Part shown: positions 13,283 to 49,258 of the stretch, piece after piece
Position numbering within the stretch: the stretch's first letter is position 1
Layout of the letters: every line of letters starts with the position of its first letter
Assembly: GCA_005877815.1 (NCBI GenBank)
Contig: VBOG01000078.1
Coordinates: forward strand, 13,291 to 77,290
From: Nitrospirota bacterium
Lineage (GTDB): Bacteria; Nitrospirota; Nitrospiria; Nitrospirales; NS-4
Length of the DNA stretch: 64,000 nucleotides
Direction: 5' to 3'
The notes under the pieces: model-generated
Told to the model about the DNA's origin: nothing
Database searches by the model: none
The model's input: only the letters and a program-made list of their open reading frames with translations
Position numbers and translations under genes: made by a program

Positions 13283-14554
13283 CTAAGTCCCTCGTGCTTC
13301 CACCGTTGTCGCAGCATCCACATCAGTCTTGTTCACATCGGTTTTCGGCAGGAACGGCACGATCACAAACGCGCCGAGTGTGAACACCCCCGCCACGATA
13401 ATCAACGGCGTGATGTTCTGATGGAAGAGTCGTTCATAGAGATACGCACCCGTGACCTGCGACAGTTGGCCCGCCGCATTATAAATCGACATCAACCCCG
13501 CAAACGTAAATCCCGCCGCTTGAGGCGGGCACACCGCGGCCGCTAGGCTGAGGAGCGTCAGCATGGGGATCATGCTCAGGATGCCGGTCGTAAAATACAG
13601 AATCACCGCGCTCGTCTTATTCACGAGCAGCAGGTAGGCCAGCGTCGTGCCGGATCCCAGCACGATACTGAGATAGACCAGGGTCTTATTGGGATAGCGG
13701 TCCGCCAGATAGCGTCGGTAGACGAATGCACCGATGACCGCCCCCACCGACGCAATCGCCGTCAGTTGCCCGATGAAATATTGTTCGAAGTTCAGGTGAT
13801 CGACCATGTGGTAAAACAACGGCGTGCCGAAGCTCGGCGTGAAGTTCCAGAAAGCCAGAAACCCGGCCACGATCCAGAGTGTCCGGGATTTGATCGCCGA
13901 CATGAGCCCGTGGCTGGTTGAACGCAGCGCCCCCAGATCGAGTCGGGACTTCTCCTCCCTGACAAGGAAGGTCGTGGCGATCACCACCGCCGCCGGAGCA
14001 CCGGCAACAATCAAGGCTGCGGTATGAAGGGCGCCTGCCGGCGAGAGAACTTGGCTCAACCAGCCTCCAACGACGCCGGACGTGATTGCCGCGATGTTGA
14101 ACCACATCCACTGCTGACTTTGAAATTGTTTGATCAACCCCGTCTTCTGGCCGTTCTCCACCATTAAGGCATCCACGAGGACATCGGAGGACGCGATCCC
14201 TAGCGCCGTCAGCAAGAGGGCCAGGACGATCATATTCGGCGTGGTCAATCCTGTCAGCCAGAGAAAGCCGCCGGCAGCAAGCCCGTTCATGACGAAGAGA
14301 TAGCTTTTCCGTCGATAGCCGCACAGTGGAATGAAATCGCTCAATAGGCCGTACGCGGGCTTGATGATCCACGGGACGGTCAGCACCGCGAGCAACCCAG
14401 CAACCTGATCAGTCGTCAGTTCCAGGGACTTCAAATAGAACATCAGCGGTTGACTGATCAGCGCTCCCGCCTGCCCGATCCCTTGGGCAAAATACACCAG
14501 CCCAAAATAGATCATGAGACGGTGTGTCTCAGGCGTACGACGCTGGTCAGCCAT
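13283..14554 (-). CDS. MFS transporter, folate-biopterin (BT1) family-like
   Basis: 423 aa, about 12 TM. ...LTVPWIIKPAYGLLSDFIPLCGYRRKSY... matches the BT1-type signature as I remember it. Confidence 0.7.
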   Translation of the reverse strand: MADQRRTPETHRLMIYFGLVYFAQGIGQAGALISQPLMFYLKSLELTTDQVAGLLAVLTVPWIIKPAYGLLSDFIPLCGYRRKSYLFVMNGLAAGGFLWLTGLTTPNMIVLALLLTALGIASSDVLVDALMVENGQKTGLIKQFQSQQWMWFNIAAITSGVVGGWLSQVLSPAGALHTAALIVAGAPAAVVIATTFLVREEKSRLDLGALRSTSHGLMSAIKSRTLWIVAGFLAFWNFTPSFGTPLFYHMVDHLNFEQYFIGQLTAIASVGAVIGAFVYRRYLADRYPNKTLVYLSIVLGSGTTLAYLLLVNKTSAVILYFTTGILSMIPMLTLLSLAAAVCPPQAAGFTFAGLMSIYNAAGQLSQVTGAYLYERLFHQNITPLIIVAGVFTLGAFVIVPFLPKTDVNKTDVDAATTVEARGT

Positions 14555-36557: not shown

Positions 36558-37367
36558 CTATTCTATGTAGGCGATGGCCCTGGCCAGCCGGGTGAACCCC
36601 GCGTCCAGGATCAGCCCGACGACGCCAATCACCAAAATGGCGAACATCACGCGAGTCAGCGAAAGATTGTTCCATTCATTCCACACGAAGTACCCGATGC
36701 CGGTGCCCCCCACCAGCATTTCGGCCGCCACGACCGCGACCCAGGCGCTCCCGATGGAAATGCGGAGGCCCGCCACGATAGTCGGTGCGGCCGCCGGCAG
36801 AATGACTTTGAAGAACCTTCCCCACCAGGACAACTGCAACAACGCGGCCACGTTGAGATAATCGCGCTTAATCGCGCTCACCCCGAATGCCGTATTCGCC
36901 AATGTGGGCCAGAGGGTGGACATGAAAATGACGAGAATCATCGCCCCCGTCGCGTCCTTGATGGTGTACAGAAACAGCGGCATCCAGGCCAGCGGCGAGA
37001 TCGGCTTGAGGATCTGAATATACGGATTCGCCGCCTTGAGCAGGATGGGATTCAGTCCCAGGATGACACCCAAGAAAATCGCGACCACCGACGCCAGACT
37101 GTAGCCGATCGCCACGCGACCCAGACTGGAGAGCACTTGAAAGCCGATCCCTTTATCGTTCGGACCGCGGTCGTAGAATGGCTCAGACAGCATTTCCCAC
37201 GTCACCGTGGCCACAGCCGCTGGTCCCGGAAGGCCCTGGGTCCGGCCTCCTCCCGACGGCGTGGAGGCCAATTGCCACACGAACAGGGCGGCGAACAGCA
37301 GGAGCGCCGAGAGCGCCACGGCCCGAAAGGTTTCATTTGGAACAGCCAACGTCATGACATCCTCCAT
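36558..37367 (-). CDS. ABC transporter permease (NrtB/CynB type)
   Basis: 269 aa, 6 TM, with a BPD-transporter loop region. Follows the binding-protein gene. Confidence 0.85.
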   Translation of the reverse strand: MEDVMTLAVPNETFRAVALSALLLFAALFVWQLASTPSGGGRTQGLPGPAAVATVTWEMLSEPFYDRGPNDKGIGFQVLSSLGRVAIGYSLASVVAIFLGVILGLNPILLKAANPYIQILKPISPLAWMPLFLYTIKDATGAMILVIFMSTLWPTLANTAFGVSAIKRDYLNVAALLQLSWWGRFFKVILPAAAPTIVAGLRISIGSAWVAVVAAEMLVGGTGIGYFVWNEWNNLSLTRVMFAILVIGVVGLILDAGFTRLARAIAYIE

Positions 37368-38638
37368 TACGTCCGGCGTATCGCAAAGCTATTCACATAG
37401 TCCTCCGGCCGCTCCGGATCGAACACCTTCCCATCCGCAAACCGATGCGTTTTCATGTTGTCCTTCGGTGCCTTGTGGCCCATCGCCTGCATCACCTCCC
37501 GGCAGCTCGATGTGAGATAAACCTCCTCGGCGATCTTCCGGTAATTCACGTCACCTTTGATGTATCCCCACCGCTTCATCTGCGTCAGGATCCAGATGGC
37601 CATCGAATGCCAGGGATAGGGATCGAAGTCGATTCGATCCGGAACCGTACGCGTGTTGCCGAGACCATCAGGGAAGGTGCCAGTGAGAATCTGCTCCAAC
37701 ACTTCCACCGGTTGGTTGAGATAGTTCTTCGGCGCGATGGCCTTCGCAATGTCCTTCCTGTTCGCTTTATCAGAGGCGTGCTCCGTCGCATCCACGATGG
37801 CCTTCAGCAATGCCTTAAAGCTGTTCGGATTGCCCGTCGCAAACTCCTTCGAACAGGAAAAGGCGCAACATGGGTGTCCGTCCCAGATGTCCTTAGACAG
37901 CAGGTGGATAAAGCCAAACCCTTCGAAGACGGCCCGTTGATTGAAGGGGTCGGGCCCCAAATAGCCGTCCAGATTGTTGGCGCGTAGGTTCGCGACCATT
38001 TCGGGCGGCGGCAGCACGCGAATCTGTACATCCTTGTCTGGATCCACTCCGCCCTCCGCGAGATAGTAGCGGAGCAGAAAGTTATGCATGGAATAGTCGA
38101 ACGGCACGGCAAATTTGAATCCCTTCATGTCCTTGGGCGCCTTCACCCCTTTGTGCTTGAGATGAAGCGTGATGGCCTGCCCGTTGATGTTCTCGATGGC
38201 CGGCATGAGAAACGGCGCCGATTGCGACCCCACCCCCATGGTGATTGCCAGCGGCATCGGCGTCAGCATGTGCGTCGCGTCCGTCTGCTTATTCAGGGCA
38301 AAGTCACGGATCATGGCCCATCCCGAGGCCTTGAGGACTTCCACGTTCAGCCCGTATTTCTTATAAAATCCTAACGGCTCGGCCATGATCAACGGCGTCG
38401 CGCAGGTGATCGGAATGAATCCAACCTTGAGGTCGGCCTTCTCCGGCTTCCCAGGAGCATCCGCCGCCCATGCCTGGAGATCGTTCAGCGGCAAGATGTC
38501 CTTGATGATCGCGAGGGCGGCGGCCGCCCCTACCAGCTTGAAGAATTCCCGGCGGCTTCGTCCCTGACCTTCGAAAAGGCCGTATAGCACGGCGCCCTCA
38601 ACCAGTTCGGCCATTCGCTCGTTCGGTTCCGTATCCAT
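37367..38638 (-). CDS. periplasmic substrate-binding protein (NrtA/CynA type) with twin-arginine signal
   Basis: ...GRSRREFFKLVGAAAALAI... Tat motif, NMT1/NrtA-like body. ATG 38638 follows AAGGAGG. Cyanate versus nitrate/nitrite specificity is not resolvable here. Confidence 0.8.
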   Translation of the reverse strand: MDTEPNERMAELVEGAVLYGLFEGQGRSRREFFKLVGAAAALAIIKDILPLNDLQAWAADAPGKPEKADLKVGFIPITCATPLIMAEPLGFYKKYGLNVEVLKASGWAMIRDFALNKQTDATHMLTPMPLAITMGVGSQSAPFLMPAIENINGQAITLHLKHKGVKAPKDMKGFKFAVPFDYSMHNFLLRYYLAEGGVDPDKDVQIRVLPPPEMVANLRANNLDGYLGPDPFNQRAVFEGFGFIHLLSKDIWDGHPCCAFSCSKEFATGNPNSFKALLKAIVDATEHASDKANRKDIAKAIAPKNYLNQPVEVLEQILTGTFPDGLGNTRTVPDRIDFDPYPWHSMAIWILTQMKRWGYIKGDVNYRKIAEEVYLTSSCREVMQAMGHKAPKDNMKTHRFADGKVFDPERPEDYVNSFAIRRT

Positions 38639-38654: not shown

Positions 38655-38690
38655 AATAAAAAGGCGCCAGCATGCCTGTATGCTGGCGCC
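38655..38690 (-). terminator. intrinsic-terminator-type hairpin placed just 5' of the cyn/nrt binding-protein SD (5 nt from U-tract to GGAGG, 16 nt to ATG; candidate attenuator)
   Basis: Minus-strand RNA: GGCGCCAGCAU-ACAGGC-AUGCUGGCGCC-UUUUUAUU. An 11-bp perfect stem with a hexaloop (A at position 1, G at position 4). About 110 nt after the glnA stop. Confidence 0.65.
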
Positions 38691-38746
38691 CTTGCCAGGG
38701 CCGCCCCTTTCTCCACCACCATGTGGCCAAGAGGCGTGTGATGACT

Positions 38747-38799: not shown

Positions 38800-40209
38800 C
38801 TACACGTCATAGTAGAGGAAGAATTCATAGGGGTGCGGACGAAGCCGCATTGGATCCACCTCTTTCGTCCTCTTGTAGCTAATCCAAATATCCACGACGT
38901 CCTGCGTAAAAACATTTCCCTTTAACAGAAAGGCATGGTCCTTTTCCAGGTTCCGCAGCGACTCCTCCAAGCTTCCCGGCATGGTCTTGAGCTTGGCCGC
39001 CTCGTGCGGCTCGAGATCATAGAGATCTTTTTCCATGGCATGGCCCGGATCAATCTTGTTTTCGATGCCGTCCAATCCTGCCATCAGCATGGCGGCAAAC
39101 GCATAGTAGGGATTGGTGGCTGGGTCGGGGAAACGGACCTCGATCCGCTTCGCCTTCGGATTCGGCACATACATCGGGATGCGGATCCCGGCGCTCCGAT
39201 TCCGGCTGGAATAGGCGAGATTCACGGGCGCCTCGAACCCCGGCGTCAGACGCTTGTACGAGTTCGTGGTGGGATTCGTAATGGCCGCCAGGGCGGGCGC
39301 ATGTTTTAAGATGCCACCGATGTACCACAGGCACAACTGGGAAACGCCGGCGTACTCCTTGCCGGCAAAGAGCGGCTTCCCATCCTTCCAGATGCTCTGG
39401 TGTGTATGCATGCCGGACCCATTGTCACCGAACAGCGGCTTGGGCATGAACGTGACAGTCTTGCCGTGTCGCCGGGCTACATTTTTAATGACGTACTTAT
39501 ACATCATCATCTTGTCGGCCATGGTCGTCAGCGTGTCATACCGAAGGTCGATCTCCGCTTGCCCTGCCGTCGCGACCTCATGATGGTGTTTCTCGATCAT
39601 GATACCCATCTTTTGCATCTCATCGACCATCTCACTGCGAATGTCCTGCTGGGTATCAATGGGTGGAACAGGGAAATAGCCTTCCTTATGGCGCGGTTTG
39701 TTGCCGAGGTTGAAGCCCTCTTTGCCGGAATTCCAGATGCCTTCGTCCGAATCGATGAAGTAGTAGCCGCTGTTGCTCGTCTGATCGTAGCGCGCGTTAT
39801 CAAAAATAAAGAACTCGGCTTCCGGTCCCCAGTACGACACATCGCCGATCCGCGTAGACTTCAGATACTTTTCCGCCTTTTGCGCCACGAATCGGGGATC
39901 CCGGCTGTAATTTTCGCGCGTGATGGGATCGACGACGTTACAGATCATGCTGAGCGTCGGCATGCTCGTAAAGGGATCCATTACGGCAGTCTTCGTGTCC
40001 GGCACGATCATCATGTCGCTGTTGTTGATCGCCTGCCACCCACGAATCGATGAGCCGTCGAATCCCGAACCGTCGGTGAAGACCGAATCCGTCAATTCTT
40101 CGATCGGGATCGTGAAGTGCTGCCACGTTCCCGGAAAATCGACGAACTTCAAATCCACCATGATGGCCTTGTGTTTTTTTGCCAGCTCCAGCACTTCCTT
40201 CGCAGTCAT
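38800..40209 (-). CDS. glnA: glutamine synthetase type I
   Basis: 469 aa. ...FDGSSIRGW..., ...[16 protein letters not shown]..., adenylylation-loop ...[10 protein letters not shown]... with the Tyr retained. Confidence 0.95.
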
Positions 40210-40248: not shown

Positions 40249-42927
40249 TCATGGCAACGAGGTTCGTTGCACGACCGGACGCCCCGCCCGATCTCCTCCG
40301 AAGAATTGTTCGATTCGCGTCGTGATCTCGGCGCTGATGGCGTCGCAGCGGTCCTGCGCCTCAACTTTCTCGCCGCCCTCATCCGTCACATAAAAGACAT
40401 CCGCCACCTGGTCGAGTTTCGTGGCGATCCTTGCGGCATGCACCGAAAGACCGAGATCAAAAATGGTTTTTGTCAGTACGTACAGCAGCCCCTGCCGGTC
40501 GTCGGCAAAGACGTCGATGATGGTATACCGATCCGACGTCTCATTGTCCACCTGCACGACCGTGGGTTCTCGAAGGGGGACACCCTGTCGGCCGGCGCCG
40601 AAACGCGTTGCCTCCCGGAGCAGTTTTTCCACGTCCATGCGACCTTCCAGGACCGCAATGATGCTCTCGCGTATGTCGCCGGTGCGCCGCGTCTCCGGGC
40701 CTTCCGGGTAGTCCGGATCGAGCACATGGAAAACGTCCACCACCACGCCGTCAGCCAGCGTCATGATCTGTGCATCGAGAATCTGTACGCCCCTTGATGC
40801 CAACACACCCGCAATCTTTGAAAAGATGCCAGGCGTCAGGCTGTCGCGAGTGTAGACGGTATATTCCGTCGCGTTGATTCCAGGATGGTGCTCGGCATCC
40901 ACCAGCACGGTGGCGTCATTGAGCCTCCATAACCATTCCAAATGGGATGCGATCCGCTCCACGGTCAGGACGGAGAAAGCCCGATCCGGCCACGCTTCAA
41001 GCTGGCGGGTCAACCATTGCACCGGCAGGCGATCCTCCAACCGCTGGAGCACAGCTTTCCGGACTTCCATCTTTCGAAGCCGATCCTGCTCCGTCGCCTC
41101 GCGTCCCTCTTCCCTGGCCAACTCAGCGAGCGTCTTGAGATACAGCTCGCTCAACAGCGTCTCCTTCCACTTGGTGAAGACGTCCGGGCCAACGGCGGAG
41201 ATGTCGGCGGCCGTCAACACGTACAACTTCTTCAATGCCTCGGCCGTGCCGACCTCACGGGCAAACCGCAGCACGACCTTGTCGTCGGATGCGTCCCGCC
41301 GAAATGCCGTATTTGACATGAGCAGGTGATGGCGGACCAGGAAGGCCAGCAGTCGGGTCTCATGTTCTCCCAAGCCGAGACGCGCGGCGGTCTCCCGTGC
41401 GATCCGTTCTCCGACCACACTGTGATCTTCACCCTGTCCCTTTCCCAGATCGTGGAGCAGCACGGCGAGGTACAGCACTTCTTTGTGTTTGATTTCCTGA
41501 TAGGCCTGACCGAGCATGCCAGGCGCCACGCCCAGTGTTTCGGCTTGGCCTAGCGCAAGCAGACTGTGATGGTCCACGGTGTACTTGTGATAGGCATTGA
41601 ACTGCATGAGGCCACGAACCGGTCCGAAGGCAGGGATCATGCGTTCCAGGAGGCGCACGCGATGCATGCAGGCGAGGCTGTCGGCGGCGGGCGCTGTCCC
41701 GTCGAGCATGGAAAGAAATGTACGGCATGCGTCCGCACTGCGAAATGCCGCATCGGGGACCGTCCCCAGCCGCTCGGAAAGATCCTGCAGCAATTCGTCG
41801 GCGATCGCGAGGCCATAAATCTGACCAAGTTGAAAAAGCCGTAGCACTCGGGCATCGTCCTCCAGGAATTGCTTCCGCAGAGAGACCGGTACGGTGATCT
41901 CATCCCGCGTGATCGCAAAATACGTTTCGATCTGACGGGCCGGCAGCCAAGCCGAAAGCCGCTGCCAGAACGACTTGACCATGGCCCGTGAGACGAATTG
42001 CCCCGTCACGTCGGCCACATGCGCTGAATGCCGATAGTACTGCTGCATGAACTGCTCGACCGACAACAGGTGCGGCGCGTTCTGAAAGCCCCAGGCAGCC
42101 GCGATCCTGATCTGTTCATCGAAGGTGAGGATGTCCTGGGCACGCCCGGCATGAAAATGCAGTTCATTGCGGATGCGCCAGAGGAAATCCTGGGCGGCCT
42201 TGATCGACACGGCATCACCGGTGGCCAGGACGCCCCGTTCAGCCAGCGCTTCAAAAGAGGGCGTACCGTAGCGGGCCAGTGCCACCCACTTCAGCAAATG
42301 TAGGTCTCTCAGGCCTCCCCGACTCTTCTTCAGGTTGGGCTCGAGCAGGAAGGTCGTCGCCCCGAAACGCCCATATTCACGCCGGCGCTCTTCAAGCTTT
42401 TGCAGGATGAATTCCTGTATCGCATTCCCTGTCACCTGTTCCCGGAAGGTCAGACTGAACTGCTGAAACAGGGTCGCATCCCCGGCAATAGATCGGGCTT
42501 CCATGAGCGACGTTCGGATGATCAGTTCGGCCCGCCCCATCGCCAAGCAGTCCCCGATGGTCCGTAAGCTATGGCCGACTTGAAAGCCTAAATCCCACAG
42601 GGCGTGCAAGACCTTCGTGGAGACAGAGCGGGCGAACTCTTCCCGGTCAGGACCATACAGAAACATGAGATCGATATCTGAATATGGCGACAGCTCCCGA
42701 CGACCATAGCCGCCCAGGGCGACAAGACAGACACCTTCCGGCGCGACGCCTCCAACGGCCTCACGGAATACCTCCATGAGAATGTCATCCGTCAGCGCCG
42801 TCAAGGCCCGCACGATATCCGTGCCGCCGCTTCCCTGACGGTGCGCCGCTGCAATGGCGGAACGCCGGGATTCGAGCCTCTCCCGTGTCCACACTTCCGG
42901 CGCGCCGATTTTCAGCGCTTCTCCCAT
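40249..42927 (-). CDS. glnD: [protein-PII] uridylyltransferase/uridylyl-removing enzyme
   Basis: 892 aa. NTase (...ALGGYGRRELSPYSDIDLMFL...), HD domain (...LHDLGKG...), two C-terminal ACT domains. Confidence 0.9.
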   Translation of the reverse strand: MGEALKIGAPEVWTRERLESRRSAIAAAHRQGSGGTDIVRALTALTDDILMEVFREAVGGVAPEGVCLVALGGYGRRELSPYSDIDLMFLYGPDREEFARSVSTKVLHALWDLGFQVGHSLRTIGDCLAMGRAELIIRTSLMEARSIAGDATLFQQFSLTFREQVTGNAIQEFILQKLEERRREYGRFGATTFLLEPNLKKSRGGLRDLHLLKWVALARYGTPSFEALAERGVLATGDAVSIKAAQDFLWRIRNELHFHAGRAQDILTFDEQIRIAAAWGFQNAPHLLSVEQFMQQYYRHSAHVADVTGQFVSRAMVKSFWQRLSAWLPARQIETYFAITRDEITVPVSLRKQFLEDDARVLRLFQLGQIYGLAIADELLQDLSERLGTVPDAAFRSADACRTFLSMLDGTAPAADSLACMHRVRLLERMIPAFGPVRGLMQFNAYHKYTVDHHSLLALGQAETLGVAPGMLGQAYQEIKHKEVLYLAVLLHDLGKGQGEDHSVVGERIARETAARLGLGEHETRLLAFLVRHHLLMSNTAFRRDASDDKVVLRFAREVGTAEALKKLYVLTAADISAVGPDVFTKWKETLLSELYLKTLAELAREEGREATEQDRLRKMEVRKAVLQRLEDRLPVQWLTRQLEAWPDRAFSVLTVERIASHLEWLWRLNDATVLVDAEHHPGINATEYTVYTRDSLTPGIFSKIAGVLASRGVQILDAQIMTLADGVVVDVFHVLDPDYPEGPETRRTGDIRESIIAVLEGRMDVEKLLREATRFGAGRQGVPLREPTVVQVDNETSDRYTIIDVFADDRQGLLYVLTKTIFDLGLSVHAARIATKLDQVADVFYVTDEGGEKVEAQDRCDAISAEITTRIEQFFGGDRAGRPVVQRTSLP

Positions 42928-42929
42928 GG

Positions 42930-43298
<369 letters not shown>

Positions 43299-43336
43299 CT
43301 AGTCAATGATCTTCTAGAAGGACGAGCGCTCCGACC

Positions 43337-43373
43337 AAAAAACGGCTGTGCCGACGACAGTGGTCGCCGGCAC
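43337..43373 (-). terminator. weak terminator-like hairpin between amt and the P-II gene
   Basis: Minus strand GUGCCG...CGGCAC, then agccg, then UUUUUU. The imperfect stem and the 5-nt gap before the U-run keep confidence low. Confidence 0.3.
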
Positions 43374-43517
43374 GCGATGATGCTCGCAAAACAGCGCCTT
43401 CGCCCATGGGACGAATGGGCTGGTTGCGAGACTCCCGAGGATACTCCGAGTGTCGGAAAAAATCATCATAGCCGAAGCGTCCTGTCCAGACAACCACCAT
43501 CTCACACGCGCCGCTTC

Positions 43518-45023
43518 TCACGATTCCTGGGCGCGTACCCGGATAGGGAATGCTGCAGTCTGCGGCTGCTGCTCAGGATAGCCGAAGATTCCGTGTTCGC
43601 TCATATCCAACCCCTCAAGTTCCTCCTCGGGACTGACCCGAAGCCCGATCGTCACCTTGATGATATAGAAGACCAGCAGGGACGCCACAAAGACAAAGGC
43701 GAACGAGGCCAGCACTCCGCCCAACTGCACCAGGAGCTGGTGAAATCCTCCCCCATAGAGCAATCCGGGCTGTCCGACCACCAGCAACTTGACCCGCTCC
43801 GGCGTGGCAAACAACCCATTCGCCAGCGTACCCCAAATTCCCGCCATCCCATGGACCGAGATGGCACCAACCGGATCGTCAATACTCCAGCGGTCCACCG
43901 CCAGCACACCTAGGACGGCAATGGTCCCCGCGACTGCTCCGATGACAACGGCCGCGCCGGGATCGACAAAGGCGCACGAAGCGGTGATGGCAACAAGCGC
44001 CGCCAGCGCACCGTTCGCCGCCATGGTCATATCGGGATTGCCGATCACGATCCATGCCACGAACAACCCGGCCAGGACTCCTGAGGCTGCGGCTAGGTTC
44101 GTGGTCAACGCCACATATGCGAAGTAACCGGGTTCTGGGTTCATGGCAGAAAGGGTGCTGCCCGGATTAAACCCGAACCAGCCGAACCAGAGAATGATCG
44201 TCCCGAATATCACCATGGGAATGTTGTGGCCAAGAATTGCCGTCGGCTTGCCGTCTTTCGTGAACTTCCCGATCCGCGGACCGAGTAAGATGGTGCCTGC
44301 GAGCGCGGCCGAGGCGCCTTGAAGATGCACGACGGTCGAACCGGCAAAATCTTGCATGCCTATTCCCGCCAGCCAGCCTCCTCCCCAGATCCAATGCCCG
44401 ACCACCGGATAGATTGCCGCCGAGAAGATCGTTCCAAACAGAAGGTAAACGATCAGCTTGGTGCGCTCAGCCATCCCGCCCCACACAATGGCCAATGAGA
44501 CGGCGCAAAAGACGACTTGAAACATGTACTTCGCGCCGAGCGACACGCTGCTATAGGACAGCGAGGCAAAGACCTCATTAATCTTGTCCCCCGCCACATC
44601 CAGAAACCATCCGCTCGTGCCGACAATAGCATTGCCTGCACCAAAGCAGACCGCAAAACCGACAGCCCAAAATGTGATGGAGGCGATCGCGAATACGAGA
44701 AGATTCTTCATCGCGGTGTGCCCCGCATTCTTTGCCCGTGAGAATCCACATTCGAGCATCGAAAAGCCCGCCTGCATGAACATCACCAGGACTGCCGCAA
44801 CGAGCACCCAGACGGTATCGAGCGAGATGTCCTGCTTCGTCGGCGGAGCGTTGGGAACCGCTTCAGGTGATGATACAGCCGCGCCAGGTTCAGCGGCTTG
44901 GGCCAACAGCGCGGGAACTGGGGCGAAGACTTCAGAGATTGCTTGTGCGAATACCGGTCCGCTCATGATACCCACACACGCGATTACCAACACACTGTGC
45001 AATACAGTTGGTCGTGATGTCAT
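43518..45023 (-). CDS. amt: ammonium transporter (Amt family)
   Basis: 501 aa from ATG 45023 (AGGAGAG upstream). Signal-like N-terminus, ...DFAGSTVVHLQGA..., ...HGMAGIWGTLA... Amt signatures. The track start at 45122 would overlap the upstream gene. Confidence 0.9.
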   Translation of the reverse strand: MTSRPTVLHSVLVIACVGIMSGPVFAQAISEVFAPVPALLAQAAEPGAAVSSPEAVPNAPPTKQDISLDTVWVLVAAVLVMFMQAGFSMLECGFSRAKNAGHTAMKNLLVFAIASITFWAVGFAVCFGAGNAIVGTSGWFLDVAGDKINEVFASLSYSSVSLGAKYMFQVVFCAVSLAIVWGGMAERTKLIVYLLFGTIFSAAIYPVVGHWIWGGGWLAGIGMQDFAGSTVVHLQGASAALAGTILLGPRIGKFTKDGKPTAILGHNIPMVIFGTIILWFGWFGFNPGSTLSAMNPEPGYFAYVALTTNLAAASGVLAGLFVAWIVIGNPDMTMAANGALAALVAITASCAFVDPGAAVVIGAVAGTIAVLGVLAVDRWSIDDPVGAISVHGMAGIWGTLANGLFATPERVKLLVVGQPGLLYGGGFHQLLVQLGGVLASFAFVFVASLLVFYIIKVTIGLRVSPEEELEGLDMSEHGIFGYPEQQPQTAAFPIRVRAQES

Positions 45024-45069
45024 AGCGCCACTCTCCTTTTGCGAACGGCACCTCCGTTGCTTCCAAACA

Positions 45070-45936
45070 TCAATAATTGATGTCGAGTTGCACGGTCCAC
45101 TTCCACTGGCCATTGATGACATGGTCGTTGAACCAGACTGGACCGGTCAGGAGACTGATGTCTTTGGTAAAGTAGTGATACATTCCGAAGCCACCGCCCC
45201 CGATGAAGTTTTTCCCGCTGGCGTAGTCCGCGGCAAACACCCACTTGTTGTACTCGTTGCCTTCCTTATCTTTGACTTTCCAGAACCCATAGTCGTATCC
45301 GACCATGCCGCCGGCATTATCCAATTCGCCGCTGGCCCCGGCTATGCAAGCCAGTGCGGGATTTCTCGGGTTGGGTTTGCATCCTCCCTGCCGCATCAGG
45401 ACTGAATCAGGATTACCGTAATACCCGCCACCATGGATTCTGCCGAAGGAGCCGAGTGTTTTACCGACAATAATATCGATAATGTCCATGTTAGTGACTT
45501 CGCTTTTCGTCCCGACGTTAAAAATGCCCACATTGATGGCCGGGAACCAGGTACCGAACGCGCCCTCGGGCGTGCCGATTTTAGCGTTGAAGAGTAACGA
45601 ATTGCCGATCGACCGCATGACGGGACTGATGCGCGTGCCTGGAAACAATCCATCAATCCCGACTTCCATCTGGAGTTTTTCAAAGGGCAGCACGCCGACT
45701 GTCAGACCCACATCCGTGGGGAATGAATCGAATTGGCCGTTCGCCAACTCTTCCTGCGTTCTCGAAAGCCGAAAGTAATTGTCCACCCCGATGTGCCACA
45801 CATTAAACGGTTGCACGTCTGATGTGGCCGGGGTCCAGTACGTCGTCGAGGGAGTGGCATAGGCCATGCTTGCCATGCACACTCCCGACAACGTCGTCAC
45901 CATCGCGGTCTTCAGAATTCGCGTCATCATCTTCAT
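45070..45936 (-). CDS. putative outer-membrane beta-barrel protein (family not recognised)
   Basis: 288 aa from ATG 45936 (GGAGG upstream). Signal peptide ...CMASMAYA. Gly/Tyr/Asn-rich alternating segments and a C-terminal ...WKWTVQLDINY aromatic end typical of OMPs. First gene of the amt string. Confidence 0.5.
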   Translation of the reverse strand: MKMMTRILKTAMVTTLSGVCMASMAYATPSTTYWTPATSDVQPFNVWHIGVDNYFRLSRTQEELANGQFDSFPTDVGLTVGVLPFEKLQMEVGIDGLFPGTRISPVMRSIGNSLLFNAKIGTPEGAFGTWFPAINVGIFNVGTKSEVTNMDIIDIIVGKTLGSFGRIHGGGYYGNPDSVLMRQGGCKPNPRNPALACIAGASGELDNAGGMVGYDYGFWKVKDKEGNEYNKWVFAADYASGKNFIGGGGFGMYHYFTKDISLLTGPVWFNDHVINGQWKWTVQLDINY

Positions 45937-45995: not shown

Positions 45996-46043
45996 CGCGA
46001 CATCGTTGTCACGCGTCAGAAGCCGTTCGGCATTGAATCGGCT
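45996..46043 (-). ncRNA. tandem hexaloop hairpins matching the ANTAR RNA-target architecture
   Basis: Minus-strand RNA. P1 (46043..46021): AGCCGAUUC-AAUGCC-GAACGGCU (8 bp, one bulged A). Linker UCUGACG. P2 (46013..45996): CGUGAC-AACGAU-GUCGCG (6 bp, including a G.U that would be a C.A mismatch on the other strand). Both loops have A1 and G4. Confidence 0.45.
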
Positions 46044-46064: not shown

Positions 46065-47804
46065 CTACCAGCCCCTGTACCGATTGGTGATCGGCATCCT
46101 CCGATCCTTCCCCAAGGCTCGAGGGGTGATTTTGACACCCGGAGGAGACTGGCGGCGCTTATATTCACTGCGATCCACCAGAGACAGGACTCGCTCCACC
46201 GTGACCCGGTCGAAGCCGAGACTGGCCAGATCGCCGACACCCTGATCCTCTTCCACATAGCCTTTGATGATAGGGTCCAAGATTTCATAGGGCGGCAGAG
46301 AATCCTGGTCCGTCTGGTTGTGACGTAGTTCGGCTGTCGGCGGCCGGACAAAGACGCGTTTCGGGATGACGGGGTCCGGATCGCGCGCATTGCGCCATCT
46401 GGCCAGTTCATAGACTAACGTCTTGGGAACATCCTTGAGGGCGGCAAAGCCACCGGCCATATCGCCGTAGAGCGTGGCATACCCGACGCTCATTTCGCTC
46501 TTGTTGCCGGTGGTGAGCACAAGCCATCCATACTTGTTCGACAACGCCATCAGCACCGTGCCACGAATTCTTGACTGTAAATTTTCCTCCGTTACATCCG
46601 GACGCCGTCTTTTGAAGACAGGAGCGAGAACGGATCGAAAAGCCTCAAACATGGGAGTGATCGGGACCACATGATGGCGGATACCGAGACTGACCGCACA
46701 CGACTCGGCATCTTCGCGTGAGTCTTCGGAAGAATAGACTGAGGGCAGGTAGACGCTCACGACGTTGGATGAACCCAGGGCATCGGCGGCCAGCACCGCA
46801 GTGAGTGCTGAGTCGATGCCACCACTGAGACCCAACACGACCGTCTTGAAGCCGTTCTTCCCTGCATAGTCCCGGATGCCGAGCGCCAGCGCTCGATAGA
46901 CTTCTTCCAGAGGCGAGGGCAATGCAGGGAGGCCACCATGAATCAATGATCGGACACGGCGGCGATGCCGAGCTGACACGACCACGCGCTCCACAGAAGC
47001 CCCCTTCCGCTCAAGCATCCGGTGCTTTCTCCGTCGCTGAGGATCATGCATCCGGGCGCGCGCGACGGCGTCCACATCGACGTCGGCCACAACCAGGTCC
47101 TCTTCGAACGCCCGTCCGCGGGCGATCGTCCGTCCGGCCTGATCGATCACAAGACTATTGCCGTCGAAGATCAGTTCATCCTGGCCTCCGACGAGATTGA
47201 CGTAGGCAATCGGAACAAGATTATCCATGGCGCGCGTCGAGAGCATTTCCTCCCTGACGCGCAACTTCCCTCGCTGGTAGGGAGACGCGCTGATGTTGAT
47301 GATCGCTTCCGCGTCTCCAACCAAGGCTTGAGTCCGCGTTGGACCCTCCGGATACCAGATATCTTCACAAATATTGACACCCAGCGTGATGCCGTTGAGG
47401 ACGATGGTCAGACTCTTGCGAGCCGACTGGAAATACCGGTTCTCATCAAACACACCGTAATTGGGAAGACAGGTCTTATGTTGAACGGCCACGACCCGCT
47501 TATTGCAGATAAAGGCGGCGGCGTTATAGAGATCTACCTTCCGATCCACAAAGCCCACCACGGCGGCAATCCCCCGAACCTTTGCGGTGAGCTGATCGAG
47601 GATCCTGATGTTGTCGGTAATAAAAGAGGGCCGCAGCAGCAGATCTTCCGGAGGGTACCCGGTCAATGTCAGCTCAGGAAAGACCACGAGATCCGCCTTC
47701 GCCTCTTGCGCCGCTTCCATTGCATAAAGGACTAGGCGGGCATTGCCGTCCAGATCTCCGACCGTGGTATTGATTTGCGCCAACGCGAGCCGCAGCATCC
47801 GCAT
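46065..47804 (-). CDS. nadE: glutamine-dependent NAD+ synthetase
   Basis: 579 aa. N-terminal CN-hydrolase domain (...FPELTLTGY...NICEDIW...) plus a C-terminal NAD-synthase domain (...LGLSGGIDSAL...). Confidence 0.9.
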   Translation of the reverse strand: MRMLRLALAQINTTVGDLDGNARLVLYAMEAAQEAKADLVVFPELTLTGYPPEDLLLRPSFITDNIRILDQLTAKVRGIAAVVGFVDRKVDLYNAAAFICNKRVVAVQHKTCLPNYGVFDENRYFQSARKSLTIVLNGITLGVNICEDIWYPEGPTRTQALVGDAEAIINISASPYQRGKLRVREEMLSTRAMDNLVPIAYVNLVGGQDELIFDGNSLVIDQAGRTIARGRAFEEDLVVADVDVDAVARARMHDPQRRRKHRMLERKGASVERVVVSARHRRRVRSLIHGGLPALPSPLEEVYRALALGIRDYAGKNGFKTVVLGLSGGIDSALTAVLAADALGSSNVVSVYLPSVYSSEDSREDAESCAVSLGIRHHVVPITPMFEAFRSVLAPVFKRRRPDVTEENLQSRIRGTVLMALSNKYGWLVLTTGNKSEMSVGYATLYGDMAGGFAALKDVPKTLVYELARWRNARDPDPVIPKRVFVRPPTAELRHNQTDQDSLPPYEILDPIIKGYVEEDQGVGDLASLGFDRVTVERVLSLVDRSEYKRRQSPPGVKITPRALGKDRRMPITNRYRGW

Positions 47805-47818
47805 CCGTGATCCTCTTT

Positions 47819-47860
47819 AAAAGAAAACGTCCTCAGACCCTCAGGGAAGAGTCGGAGGAC
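47819..47860 (-). terminator. terminator-type hairpin 14 nt upstream of the nadE start (candidate attenuator)
   Basis: Minus strand GUCCUCCGAC-(12 nt)-GUCUGAGGAC (10 bp, one mismatch) followed by GUUUUCUUUU. The nadE SD (AGAGGA) and ATG follow immediately. Confidence 0.45.
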
Positions 47861-47870
47861 GACATCGTCC

Positions 47871-47930
47871 AAACACAAACGGCGCCTTTCCTTATTGAAT
47901 CCGGCAACCGGATCAGCAAGGAAAGACGCC
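47871..47930 (-). terminator. strong intrinsic terminator after the ANTAR regulator gene
   Basis: Minus strand GGCGUCUUUCCUU...(inner AUCCGG-uug-CCGGAU)...AAGGAAAGGCGCC (13 bp, one G.U) followed by GUUUGUGUUU. Confidence 0.6.
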
Positions 47931-47940
47931 GTCGTCAGTC

Positions 47941-47960
47941 GCAGCACCACACTGTGCTAC
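47941..47960 (-). ncRNA. 7-bp hairpin with A1/G4 hexaloop just 5' of the terminator
   Basis: Minus strand GUAGCAC-AGUGUG-GUGCUGC. Lies 32 nt after the regulator stop and 10 nt before the terminator stem. Confidence 0.3.
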
Positions 47961-47992
47961 GGCGGGACTTTTACCAGAGGACTCCTAGGGTG

Positions 47993-49258
47993 TCAAGGCT
48001 TTTTTTCCCCTATTCGCCTATCCAATTCTCCGGCAAGGAGAATCGCCTCGGCAATGTCCCTCATTGAACGGCGGGTGTCCATGCTCTGCCGTTGCATCAG
48101 ACGGAAGGCCTCTTCTTCAGAAATCCGCTTGCTCTGCATCAGCACGCCCTTCGCCCGTTCGACGGTCTTGCGGACAGCGAGCGCTTCCTGCATCTCGAAA
48201 GACTTCTCCATTAAGCTGGTGTTTTCAATGGCAATCGCCGCCTGATTGGCCACCGACTGAAGGACCTTGCGCTCCTCCTGTGAGAACAAATGCTCGTGGG
48301 CCGTATAGCTGTTGATGACTCCGATCGGCTTGTCCTTGACCAACATCGGAACGGACAGGAGAGAGCACAGACCTTCTTTCCGGGCAAGGTCGGAGTACAT
48401 ATAGTCCGGATCCTTCGTCACGTCCAGCACCGCGATCGGTCTGCGTTCCTTGAGAACACGCCCGCTGATACTTTGGCCTACTTTCAAATTCGGCTTGCTT
48501 CGATACATCTCACTCAGGCTTTGCGTCGCCGCGATCTTTAGCTCATCTCGTTCCGGGTCCAAAAGCATGATCGAGCACGTCGTCGAGCCCATCATCTGAG
48601 CCGTCATGCTCACCAACAGGTGGAGGATTTCATCGAGCAATCGGCCCGAAGTGATGGTGGCGCTGACCTCGGAGAGCGTCTCCACCTGGCGCGCCTTCCT
48701 CGTGACTTCGGCGTGCAATCGCGCCGTCTCAATCGCCCCACCGACCTGCCGTCCGATGGTGGTCATCAATGCGACCTCGTGCGGGCGATGGCGATGAGGC
48801 TGCTTGTGCTGGAGGTTAATGACTCCAATGATATCGTGCTTCACGATGAGGGGAACGGACAGAAATGCCTGGTGCCGATCCTCCGGCAGGTTGTGGAACA
48901 TCTTAAACCGGGAATCGTCGCTCGCATTGCTGGCGATTGCAACTGTCCGGCCCTGTTGTGCGACCCAACCCGTGATGCCTTCGCCCAGCCCCAACCGGAC
49001 CCGACCGATGAGTTTCGGATGGGGGTTCAAGGAGGCTTTCAGCACCAGCTCGTCTTTATGCGAATTCAGCAAGTAGACAAGGCAGGAATCAGCCTTCGTC
49101 ACCTGCACGGCGATGTCCATAATGTCACGGAGGACGCAGTCCAGATCCAGATTGCCGCTGACCGTTTCGGCGATCTGATGAAGGATCTCCGCTTCACGCG
49201 TTTTTTCCCGCAGCAATCGGCGAAGCGTCGTGTCGGACGCCTCTTCGGTTCGCTTCAT
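47993..49258 (-). CDS. GAF-GAF-ANTAR RNA-binding antitermination-type regulator
   Basis: 421 aa from ATG 49258. Two GAF domains (...ADSCLVYLL...GEGITGWV...; ...CSIMLLD...GQSISGRV...). C-terminal ANTAR ...ALAVRKTVERAKGVLMQSKRISEEEAFRLMQRQSMDTRRSMRDIAEAIL. The ATG overlaps the aroB stop (ATGA at 49255..49258). The longer track ORF is rejected. Confidence 0.8.
   Translation of the reverse strand: MKRTEEASDTTLRRLLREKTREAEILHQIAETVSGNLDLDCVLRDIMDIAVQVTKADSCLVYLLNSHKDELVLKASLNPHPKLIGRVRLGLGEGITGWVAQQGRTVAIASNASDDSRFKMFHNLPEDRHQAFLSVPLIVKHDIIGVINLQHKQPHRHRPHEVALMTTIGRQVGGAIETARLHAEVTRKARQVETLSEVSATITSGRLLDEILHLLVSMTAQMMGSTTCSIMLLDPERDELKIAATQSLSEMYRSKPNLKVGQSISGRVLKERRPIAVLDVTKDPDYMYSDLARKEGLCSLLSVPMLVKDKPIGVINSYTAHEHLFSQEERKVLQSVANQAAIAIENTSLMEKSFEMQEALAVRKTVERAKGVLMQSKRISEEEAFRLMQRQSMDTRRSMRDIAEAILLAGELDRRIGEKKP

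Follow-up and report, generated by a model that had tools for sequence, protein, structure and literature searches.

On the minus strand of a 64,000-nucleotide (nt) stretch of the Nitrospirota contig VBOG01000078.1 (the whole stretch, positions 13,291 to 77,290 of the contig, being referred to here as the window), the spacer between nadE and a gene for a porin-like protein specifies two small, adjacent RNA hairpins, P1 and P2, each with a loop of exactly six nt. Comparison with related sequences indicates that the two hairpins of this site, termed site 2, are real and conserved. They probably constitute a binding site, in the mRNA, for the product of a neighboring gene, a one-component regulator with a GAF-GAF-ANTAR domain organization, and the site would then be one of at least three candidates of this type in the window. 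Two others, site 1 in front of nadE and site 3 after glnA, are associated with transcription terminators. Targeting by an ANTAR protein is supported by covariation in P1, by detection of site 1 with a covariance model (R1) derived from site 2, by the terminator-linked nature of sites 1 and 3, by synteny, and by the leaders of porin genes in relatives. An earlier note on the same DNA had proposed an ANTAR-type dual-hexaloop target tied to the regulator and to the nitrogen genes nearby, and the comparative evidence now gathered speaks for that proposal.

The ANTAR target motif has been described as two hairpins of at least 3 base pairs (bp), with hexaloops bearing A at position 1 (A1) and G at position 4 (G4), and a linker of variable length (Ramesh et al. 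2012, PMC3369931). As read from the sequence, the minus-strand RNA from 46043 to 45996 has all the components of the structural definition, i.e. two stem-loops of at least 3 bp, a variable linker, hexaloops and G4, and its loops, AAUGCC and AACGAU, both carry A1 as well as G4. P1 can be written out as AGCCG-A-UUC [AAUGCC] GAA-CGGCU, with 5+3 bp and a single bulged A. P2 has 6 bp, including U46011.G45998, and is 47 nt from the Shine-Dalgarno (SD) sequence, and 59 nt from the ATG, of the porin-like gene. Re-reading of the sequence showed the hairpin structure, the loops and all the distances in the earlier note to be correct, and Pfam gave the same identities for the genes around site 2. A terminator, in the form of a hairpin plus U tract, was sought 3′ of P2 at site 2 both in the window and in the orthologues and none was found, in agreement with the earlier reading that none overlaps the second hairpin. 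What has to be revised is the description of site 2 as the leader of a gene string for an outer-membrane protein (OMP), Amt, PII, GlnD and GlnA. It is instead, most likely, an internal, intercistronic site of an operon that starts at a promoter upstream of nadE, and the canonical leader is at 47819-47996. An additional hairpin at site 2, GCGGAUUGC..GCGACCGC, was considered as a conserved switch and rejected; its overlap with P2 is only 3 nt and it is not kept in a near-identical relative (L062).

The pattern by itself is not above chance in the window. Dual A1/G4 hexaloop hairpins with stems of at least 3 bp number 17 in the window, both strands being counted, and 17.6 +/- 4.8 in dinucleotide shuffles. 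Because they are not enriched over shuffles, significance based on the pattern was rejected, and the case for site 2 therefore rests on comparison with related sequences. Folding of the 130-nt nadE-porin spacer is likewise no better than that of shuffles (z = -0.19); the minimum free energy (MFE) fold of this spacer contains P1.

Homologues of the porin-like gene place the source organism within the Nitrospirales. For the comparison, 141 loci were taken from genome and metagenome collections and ten more were obtained by exact protein look-up (L numbers denote individual loci). By a hand tally, roughly 23 of about 27 distinct Nitrospirales nadE-porin spacers contain the hairpin pair. The alignment of site 2 consists of 21 orthologues, and omits both the window and the relatives that are near-identical to it (L062, L063). 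Its gaps are confined to the linker, for which most orthologues have 0-7 nt and one (L003) has 25 nt, and both loops are 6 nt long in all 21 sequences. P1 is 93.9% paired, and both sides have changed in four of its seven pairs, the variants including CCGCAC/GUGCGG, CUACAC/GUGUAG and CUCGUAC/GUGCGAG. Its covariation score, 0.296, is to be compared with 0.183 in column shuffles (0 of 500 reach the observed value) and with at most 0.138 when the pairing partners are slid. The stem of P2 is uninformative on covariation because its GAC/GUC core hardly varies, GAC[RNNGNN]GUC being nearly invariant among the orthologues.

The loops are similarly constrained. Position 4 is G in both loops of all 21 orthologues and position 2 is A in 19 of the 21, again in both. 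Position 1 is occupied by A in 11 and G in 10 of the P1 loops, and by A in 7 and G in 14 of the P2 loops; the consensus for the lineage is R-A-Y-G-N-N rather than A-N-N-G-N-N. Of what the earlier note expected from an alignment of orthologues, compensatory stem changes (in P1) and an invariant G4 are present, and an invariant A1 is not, the position being A or G. The P1 stems of the orthologues also carry G.U pairs, 13 of them within the six inner pairs, which favor a structure formed by RNA of the coding strand, as had been argued before from the G.U pair in the second stem of the window. The 48-nt P1-P2 segment is identical in the window and its close relative L062, and the 32 nt just after P2 are replaced between the two.

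R1 was built from the 21 site 2 orthologues, with the window absent from its seed, and was used in an unfiltered search of the window (128 kb). Its top match, at 47918-47962 (-), is in the ANTAR-nadE spacer (16.5 bits, E 0.021), and corresponds to site 1. No site 1 sequence was ever in the seed, and in 18 or more relatives R1 detects it, on the coding strand. The surrounding sequence, 47819-47996 (-), is a complete ANTAR-type attenuator leader. The -35 box of its sigma-70-type promoter overlaps the regulator's TGA stop codon, and TTGACA-N17/18-TATAAr is kept in 15 orthologues. The dual hairpin of site 1 comes next, and the loop and 3′ strand of its P2 are overlapped by the 5′ strand of the first terminator, T1. 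The leader folds far better than its shuffles (z = -6.2), with T1 in the MFE structure, and RNAalifold, when applied to 14 site 1 leaders, recovers P1, T1 and the second terminator, T2. Among the leaders listed, the loops of P1, P2 and a third hexaloop hairpin, P3, have G4 in 14/14 cases each, and position 1 of the P2 loop is always G. The presence of a single extra hexaloop hairpin, P3, guarding T2 is a misfit with the two-hairpin rule for ANTAR binding. A separate peculiarity is that in two relatives (L085, 2122-3000, and L086, 1806-2684) site 1 is separated by about 880 nt from the point at which the ANTAR gene match ends, compared with some 30-60 nt in the others; an inserted gene or element may be responsible.

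At site 3 the terminator is 14 bp, and its 5′ strand also overlaps P2. The site is kept after glnA in five relatives (L005, L006, L071, L072 and L085), where the form of its P1 is GGGUC[RNNGCN]GACCC. It contains CUGGCAAGGGCGCC, a 13/14 match to the site CAGGCAANGGCGCC of the antiterminator GnfR, and the match overlaps the site 3 terminator; the GnfR-type conserved sequence is absent from site 2. The first gene after site 3 is for an ABC-transporter substrate-binding protein. Since the longest open reading frame of this gene (start at 38722) crosses the site 3 terminator, its real start is probably the ATG at 38638, which has an SD upstream. Overlap of P2 by the 5′ strand of a terminator, the mark of the attenuation subclass of ANTAR targets, is then a property of sites 1 and 3 and not of site 2, and the dual hairpin of site 2 does not overlap the ribosome-binding site or start codon in the manner of the actinobacterial type.

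Gene order and the leaders of porin genes elsewhere are also pertinent. The synteny aroB-ANTAR-nadE-OMP-...-glnA is general in those Nitrospirales loci that reach far enough. The porin gene of three relatives (L064, whose porin is 83% identical, L087 and L088) is preceded by a TTGACA/TATAxx promoter of its own, a dual hexaloop hairpin and one or more terminators. Two loci from deltaproteobacterial metagenome-assembled genomes (MAGs), L043 and L058, have a GAF-ANTAR-nadE neighborhood and a porin leader with GCAC[AAUGAU]GUGU-GAA-AAC[AGUGAC]GUU overlapping a terminator. In other deltaproteobacterial and related loci a sigma-54-type promoter is followed by GGC[AANGGC]GCC and a terminator before porin, amt or PII genes. 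A Nitrospira sp. (L142) and a Nitrospirota genome (L144) have the order aroC-aroB-GAF-GAF-ANTAR-nadE-amt-PII-glnD-glnA, with neither porin gene nor site 2; both have hexaloop hairpins and a terminator before nadE, and further hairpin-terminator units after glnA. In L142 (18095-18445) the sequence after glnA includes a promoter-like sequence, four hexaloop hairpins and two terminators before cynS, for cyanase, and a formate/nitrite transporter gene, and in L144 (18175-18400) similar hairpins precede a gene for a sigma-54 activator. Judging from these arrangements, the regulon seems to differ between lineages.

The GAF domain of PtsP responds to glutamine and 2-oxoglutarate, and that of NifA to 2-oxoglutarate. 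The first GAF domain of the regulator in the window resembles that of PtsP/EI-Ntr (PDB 3ci6, E 9e-18) and the second resembles the GAF domains of Nlh1 and NifA (PDB 4g3k, E 1e-10; also 9qq6), and because of these resemblances it may reasonably be inferred that the protein senses a nitrogen-status signal. For its ANTAR domain the matches are to the equivalent domains of a response regulator (6wsh), the Rv1626-type protein 1s8n, NasR (4akk) and AmiR (1qo0), and NCBIfam agrees with the PDB similarities of the regulator's domains. The annotations of its homologues, of which there are more than 7,000, do not go beyond ‘GAF domain-containing’, ‘GAF and ANTAR domain-containing’ or ‘signal transduction protein with GAF and PtsI domain’. 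A tblastn search with the ANTAR domain found no second such domain in the window, and this together with Pfam bears out the previous statement that the only ANTAR protein there is the GAF-GAF-ANTAR one encoded about 2 kb upstream.

With regard to mechanism, the promoter overlapping the regulator's stop codon would give rise to a long nadE-porin-amt-glnB-glnD-glnA transcript. In the site 1 leader, formation of P2 and of the intrinsic terminator T1 would be mutually exclusive, with P3 and T2 following, and the active regulator would bind the hairpins and keep P2 closed to permit read-through by RNA polymerase. Sites 1 and 3 would in this respect use the architecture described for EutV, NasR and AmiR, in which either P2 or the terminator can form and protein binding shifts the balance to P2 and read-through (PMC3369931). 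Site 2 would be a second control point of the regulator, over the genes 3′ of nadE. Since there is no terminator at site 2, the likeliest step to be regulated there would be initiation of translation of the porin gene. For many relatives an alternative pairing is predicted, between the 3′ half of P2 and the segment from the SD to the AUG, and P2 stabilized by protein would free the ribosome-binding site.

Several features of the relatives are consistent with such a switch. RNAalifold, on 15 site 2 leaders, gives P1 plus a long-range helix of AUGGUGUCGCC (the loop and 3′ strand of P2) with GGCGRCAC..CCAU, the latter side comprising the end of the SD, the spacer and the start codon. In the clades concerned this sequestering helix has duplex energies of -15 to -17.6 kcal/mol, which few shuffles equal, and the helix would explain the uniformity of the P2 loop (GAUGGU or AAUGGU) in those clades. 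In the window, GCGACA (45944-45939) is complementary to UGUCGC of P2 (46002-45997). Control of the porin gene at the level of translation is put forward tentatively as the leading mechanism at site 2, with the balance of expectation against it.

A number of observations count against these proposals, some against the switch in particular and others against site 2 as an ANTAR target more broadly. The sequestering helix of the window is of 6 bp only (UGUCGC/GCGACA), at -11.1 kcal/mol, and 13.6% of shuffles are as good. The helix is absent in L005, L009, L149 and L150, and where it is present it shows one-sided changes only. Constrained partition-function folding in which P1 and P2 are forced leaves the SD-AUG segment of the window unopened (0.45 to 0.35); in some relatives the same constraint opens it slightly, the changes being small and inconsistent. 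P2 is not in the MFE structure of the spacer, in which a shifted tetraloop variant appears instead. About half of the orthologues have G at loop position 1, unlike the published A1 rule. The P1 of the window has a bulge and is without the CAC/GUG closing pairs found in almost all relatives, and its site 2 is the most divergent member of the family. R1 places it second in the 128 kb, with a low score (14.2 bits, E 0.079) and with P1 misaligned because of the missing closing pairs. Three lineages (L076/L151 and L148) have a nadE-porin spacer of 34-38 nt with no hairpins, and site 2 is therefore dispensable; nadE and the porin gene are evidently co-transcribed there. To these is added the occurrence of the hairpin pattern in the window at chance frequency, as given above.

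The main alternative to a functional site 2 is that it is a vestigial copy, a remnant of a promoter-proximal porin leader such as those of L064, L087 and L088, whose promoter and terminators were lost once the porin gene adjoined nadE, so that the protein may still bind with no regulation left. Site 2 being without a terminator, divergence of the window's P1 from the family consensus and its correspondingly low score, the complete loss of the element in some lineages, and the lack of any effect on SD accessibility in the window under constrained folding would all fit such a history. However, the element has been retained in most lineages with compensatory changes in P1 and an invariant G4, which points to ongoing selection; the 48-nt segment does not differ between the window and L062, although the 32 nt next to it are replaced; and both loops in the window keep A1 and G4. 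A purely vestigial status is, on this evidence, unlikely.

An intercistronic position that begins 7-21 nt beyond the nadE stop codon, with no terminator and an unremarkable folding energy for the spacer, is also what might be expected of a generic intercistronic structure unrelated to the ANTAR protein, i.e. a signal for stabilization or processing of mRNA, e.g. by protection of nadE, or of the segment downstream, from RNases. Stabilizers, however, have no need of paired loops of exactly 6 nt with an invariant G4 and A or G at loop position 1, and the model derived from site 2 would not be expected, were it such a structure, to cross-detect terminator-linked sites beside the ANTAR gene, as it does; this explanation is considered decidedly improbable. 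The frequency of dual A1/G4 hairpins in shuffles (17 versus 17.6) raises the further question of chance inverted repeats, or of palindromic DNA sites for a protein. The hairpins are, however, kept in most orthologous spacers, and their stems vary yet stay complementary, which is the opposite of what a protein-binding DNA palindrome shows, and in the opposite strand the G.U pairs would become A.C mismatches. Either a chance or a DNA-level origin is very improbable indeed.

The preferred interpretation, of site 2 as a target of the regulator, can be extended to a joint reading in which the regulator is both the nitrogen-status sensor and a master post-initiation regulator in Nitrospirales, with site 2 representing a new mode of ANTAR action. 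The ligands of the PtsP-like and NifA-like GAF domains would be glutamine and/or 2-oxoglutarate; the regulon would cover nadE, the porin gene, amt, glnB, glnD and glnA, as well as cyanase or ABC-transporter operons; and the regulator would fill the role that is held by NtrBC/sigma-54 in proteobacteria. Site 2 would be an intercistronic switch without a terminator, at which P2 stabilized by protein releases the long-range helix that otherwise occludes the next gene's SD and start codon. Taken as a whole this is doubtful, and is offered as a possibility only.

Relationships to known systems are instructive. The targets of EutV (Enterococcus faecalis eut), NasR (Klebsiella nasF) and AmiR (Pseudomonas amiE) share with those described here the adjacent short hexaloop hairpins, the G4 and the variable linker, and also the A1 in the window, an ANTAR gene nearby and, at sites 1 and 3, overlap of a terminator with P2. 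Unlike those leaders, site 2 is intercistronic and without a terminator, and loop position 1 is A or G across the orthologues. The regulators differ too, that in the window being a one-component GAF-GAF-ANTAR protein whereas EutV is a response regulator, NasR has a NIT domain and AmiR a pseudo-receiver. Lack of a terminator is not itself exceptional, as only about 30% of the motif matches of Ramesh et al. had terminators, with translational control being suggested for the rest (PMC3369931). Terminator-less dual hairpins with proposed action on translation initiation are also a feature of actinobacterial, including mycobacterial, ANTAR RNAs (PMC8164766; bioRxiv 10.1101/660928). There, however, it is the ribosome-binding site or start codon itself that is overlapped by the hairpins, and the effect of binding is repression, whereas P2 of site 2 ends 59 nt before the ATG and binding would, if anything, relieve a long-range sequestering helix.

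The earlier note regarded a nitrogen-control circuit of this type as one not known to be described, and in that respect it has to be corrected. Motif matches upstream of genes for PII, ammonium transporters and glutamine synthase, and a wide involvement of ANTAR regulons in the control of nitrogen metabolism, have been reported (PMC3369931), and ANTAR control of PII, amt and glutamine synthetase genes is thus a prediction that was already made in 2012. The predicted regulon of Desulfotomaculum acetoxidans, with several ANTAR sites per genome before PII, amt and glutamine/glutamate synthase genes, is similar to that proposed here; the nitrogen regulons of that study (Ramesh et al. 2012) are predictions in phyla other than Nitrospirota, and neither Nitrospira nor nadE was found in the text files among its supplementary material. 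Experimental work has been done on GnfK/GnfR, which controls nitrogen-fixation genes of Geobacter sulfurreducens by antitermination (Ueki and Lovley 2010, PMC2995071). Nitrogen genes with leader terminators are common to both cases, the GnfR site CAGGCAANGGCGCC is a GGC[AANGGC]GCC hairpin almost identical to P2 of site 3, CUGGCAAGGGCGCC, and homologues of the porin gene in deltaproteobacterial loci carry GnfR-type sites behind sigma-54 promoters. GnfR is, however, a phosphorylated response regulator in a sigma-54 cascade, whereas the promoters in the present case are sigma-70-like, with a GAF-GAF sensor; and glnB is not GnfR-dependent in Geobacter, whereas here the genes are those of assimilation, nadE, amt, glnB, glnD and glnA, in a non-diazotrophic nitrifier lineage.

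In 2012 no ANTAR protein of the GAF or PAS type had been characterized (PMC3369931). A term search of a 2025 review gave GAF only among the ANTAR architectures listed, with no worked example in the passages that it retrieved. Full-text literature searches yielded no paper linking ANTAR to Nitrospira, nadE or amtB, and in the literature searched there is no characterized GAF-type ANTAR regulator and no description of a GAF-GAF sensor, a Nitrospirales host or a nadE target.

Searches of Rfam gave nothing in the whole window at gathering thresholds. Permissive searches around sites 2, 1 and 3 (at E <= 10 for site 2) gave nothing but unrelated matches below threshold, such as narK (in the wrong orientation), the Enterococcus small RNA Ref64 at site 1 (47873-47933 (-), 22.5 bits, gathering score 44.3) and NsiR1, nitrogen stress-induced RNA 1, at site 3 (38656-38718 (-), 21.1 bits, gathering score 39). 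The last two probably reflect nothing more than the shape of a hairpin plus terminator. As there was no relevant match even at the terminator-linked sites 1 and 3, we infer that Rfam 15 contains no family for ANTAR targets. A simple scan of the window for promoters and terminators did not pick up T1 and T2, as their loops are longer than 8 nt, and missed the nadE-operon promoter because its -10 box is TAAAAG; the scan is therefore uninformative about site 2. Positions of the features are listed in Table 1.

Table 1. Features of the window on the minus strand, in the order in which they are transcribed; loops are in square brackets
Feature	Position	Strand	Details
GAF-GAF-ANTAR one-component regulator gene	47993..49258	-	Pfam GAF x2 and C-terminal ANTAR
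Sigma-70-type promoter of the nadE operon	47968..47996	-	-35 TTGACA 47996-47991; -10 TAAAAG 47973-47968
Site 1 dual hairpin	47925..47960	-	P1 GUAGCAC[AGUGUG]GUGCUGC 47960-47941; P2 GAC[GACGGC]GUC 47936-47925
Terminator T1	47871..47932	-	Hairpin 47932-47879; 5′ strand ACGGCGUCUUUCCUU, 3′ strand AAGGAAAGGCGCCGU, then UUGUGUUU
Third hexaloop hairpin P3	47870-47857	-	GGAC[GAUGUC]GUCC
Terminator T2	47861-47819	-	CGUCCUC...GAGGACG + UUUUCUUUU
nadE (glutamine-dependent NAD synthetase)	46065..47804	-	Pfam; ATG at 47804; first gene after site 1
nadE stop codon	46067-46065	-	TAG; then 21 nt before P1 of site 2
Site 2 P1	46021..46043	-	AGCCGAUUC (46043-46035) [AAUGCC] (46034-46029) GAACGGCU (46028-46021)
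Site 2 linker	46014..46020	-	UCUGACG, 7 nt; from the sequence
Site 2 P2	45996..46013	-	CGUGAC (46013-46008) [AACGAU] (46007-46002) GUCGCG (46001-45996)
Start region of the porin-like gene	45948-45934	-	SD GGAGG 45948-45944; GCGACA 45944-45939; ATG 45936-45934; from the sequence
Porin-like beta-barrel gene	45070-45936	-	Downstream of site 2
amt	43518-45122	-	Downstream of site 2; Pfam
PII gene	42930-43277	-	Downstream of site 2; Pfam
glnD	40249-42927	-	Downstream of site 2; Pfam
glnA	38800-40209	-	Downstream of site 2; Pfam
Site 3	38655..38726	-	P1 CCAC[AUGGUG]GUGG 38726-38713; P2 CUGGC[AAGGGC]GCCAG 38698-38683
Site 3 terminator	38693-38660	-	AAGGGCGCCAGCAU..AUGCUGGCGCCUUU; U tract UUUUUAUU 38662-38655
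NMT1/SsuA-type ABC substrate-binding protein gene	37367..38638	-	Pfam, NCBIfam; first gene after site 3; permease and ATPase genes next

By Pfam, the same-strand genes are pilQ, aroC, aroB, that for the GAF-GAF-ANTAR protein, nadE, a gene with no family (the porin-like one), amt, PII, glnD and glnA. The porin-like gene belongs to no Pfam or NCBIfam family. The AlphaFold model of its product is a medium-confidence beta-barrel with a signal peptide (predicted local distance difference test, pLDDT, 64), and has generic barrel matches only. In Nitrospirota, Thermodesulfobacteriota, Acidobacteriota, Fibrobacterota and others (loci L011-L141) the gene is found in linkage with those for Amt and PII, and because of this linkage across phyla it is suggested that the protein is a dedicated outer-membrane channel for ammonium or a related nitrogen compound.

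The amt position of the cluster is variable, since several relatives have no amt there or have two. The amt of the window is only 33-38% identical to the amt at the equivalent position in most relatives, and scores close to the NCBIfam ‘marine subtype’ model. The amt-PII spacer, 43270-43520 (-), is strongly structured (MFE -103.5 kcal/mol, z = -2.97) and includes a 10-bp hairpin, GUGCCGGCGA..UCGUCGGCAC, then AGCCGUUUUUUGG, a possible terminator or attenuator between amt and glnB. No convincing ANTAR-type hairpins are present in this spacer. A candidate fourth site in it, GGC[GAAGGC]GCU at 43393-43404, is unsupported, as the MFE structure puts those bases in another hairpin.

Nitrospirales are globally important nitrite oxidizers and complete ammonia oxidizers. 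On the comparisons presented here, a GAF-GAF-ANTAR regulator appears to control their core nitrogen-assimilation genes. The value of the finding is in exposing a well-defined, multi-site regulon. The window and its relatives define it in testable form: each locus has three or more RNA sites, two of which have canonical terminators, and the targets are the core genes of ammonium assimilation plus that for NAD synthetase. GAF-GAF-ANTAR is an abundant ANTAR architecture, which Ramesh et al. (2012) called uncharacterized. The system would make it possible to ask directly what a GAF-ANTAR protein senses, whether ANTAR proteins tolerate G at loop position 1, and whether they can act at intercistronic sites without terminators. 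The motif could also improve annotation of nitrogen regulons in MAGs of Nitrospirales and in related deltaproteobacterial genomes.

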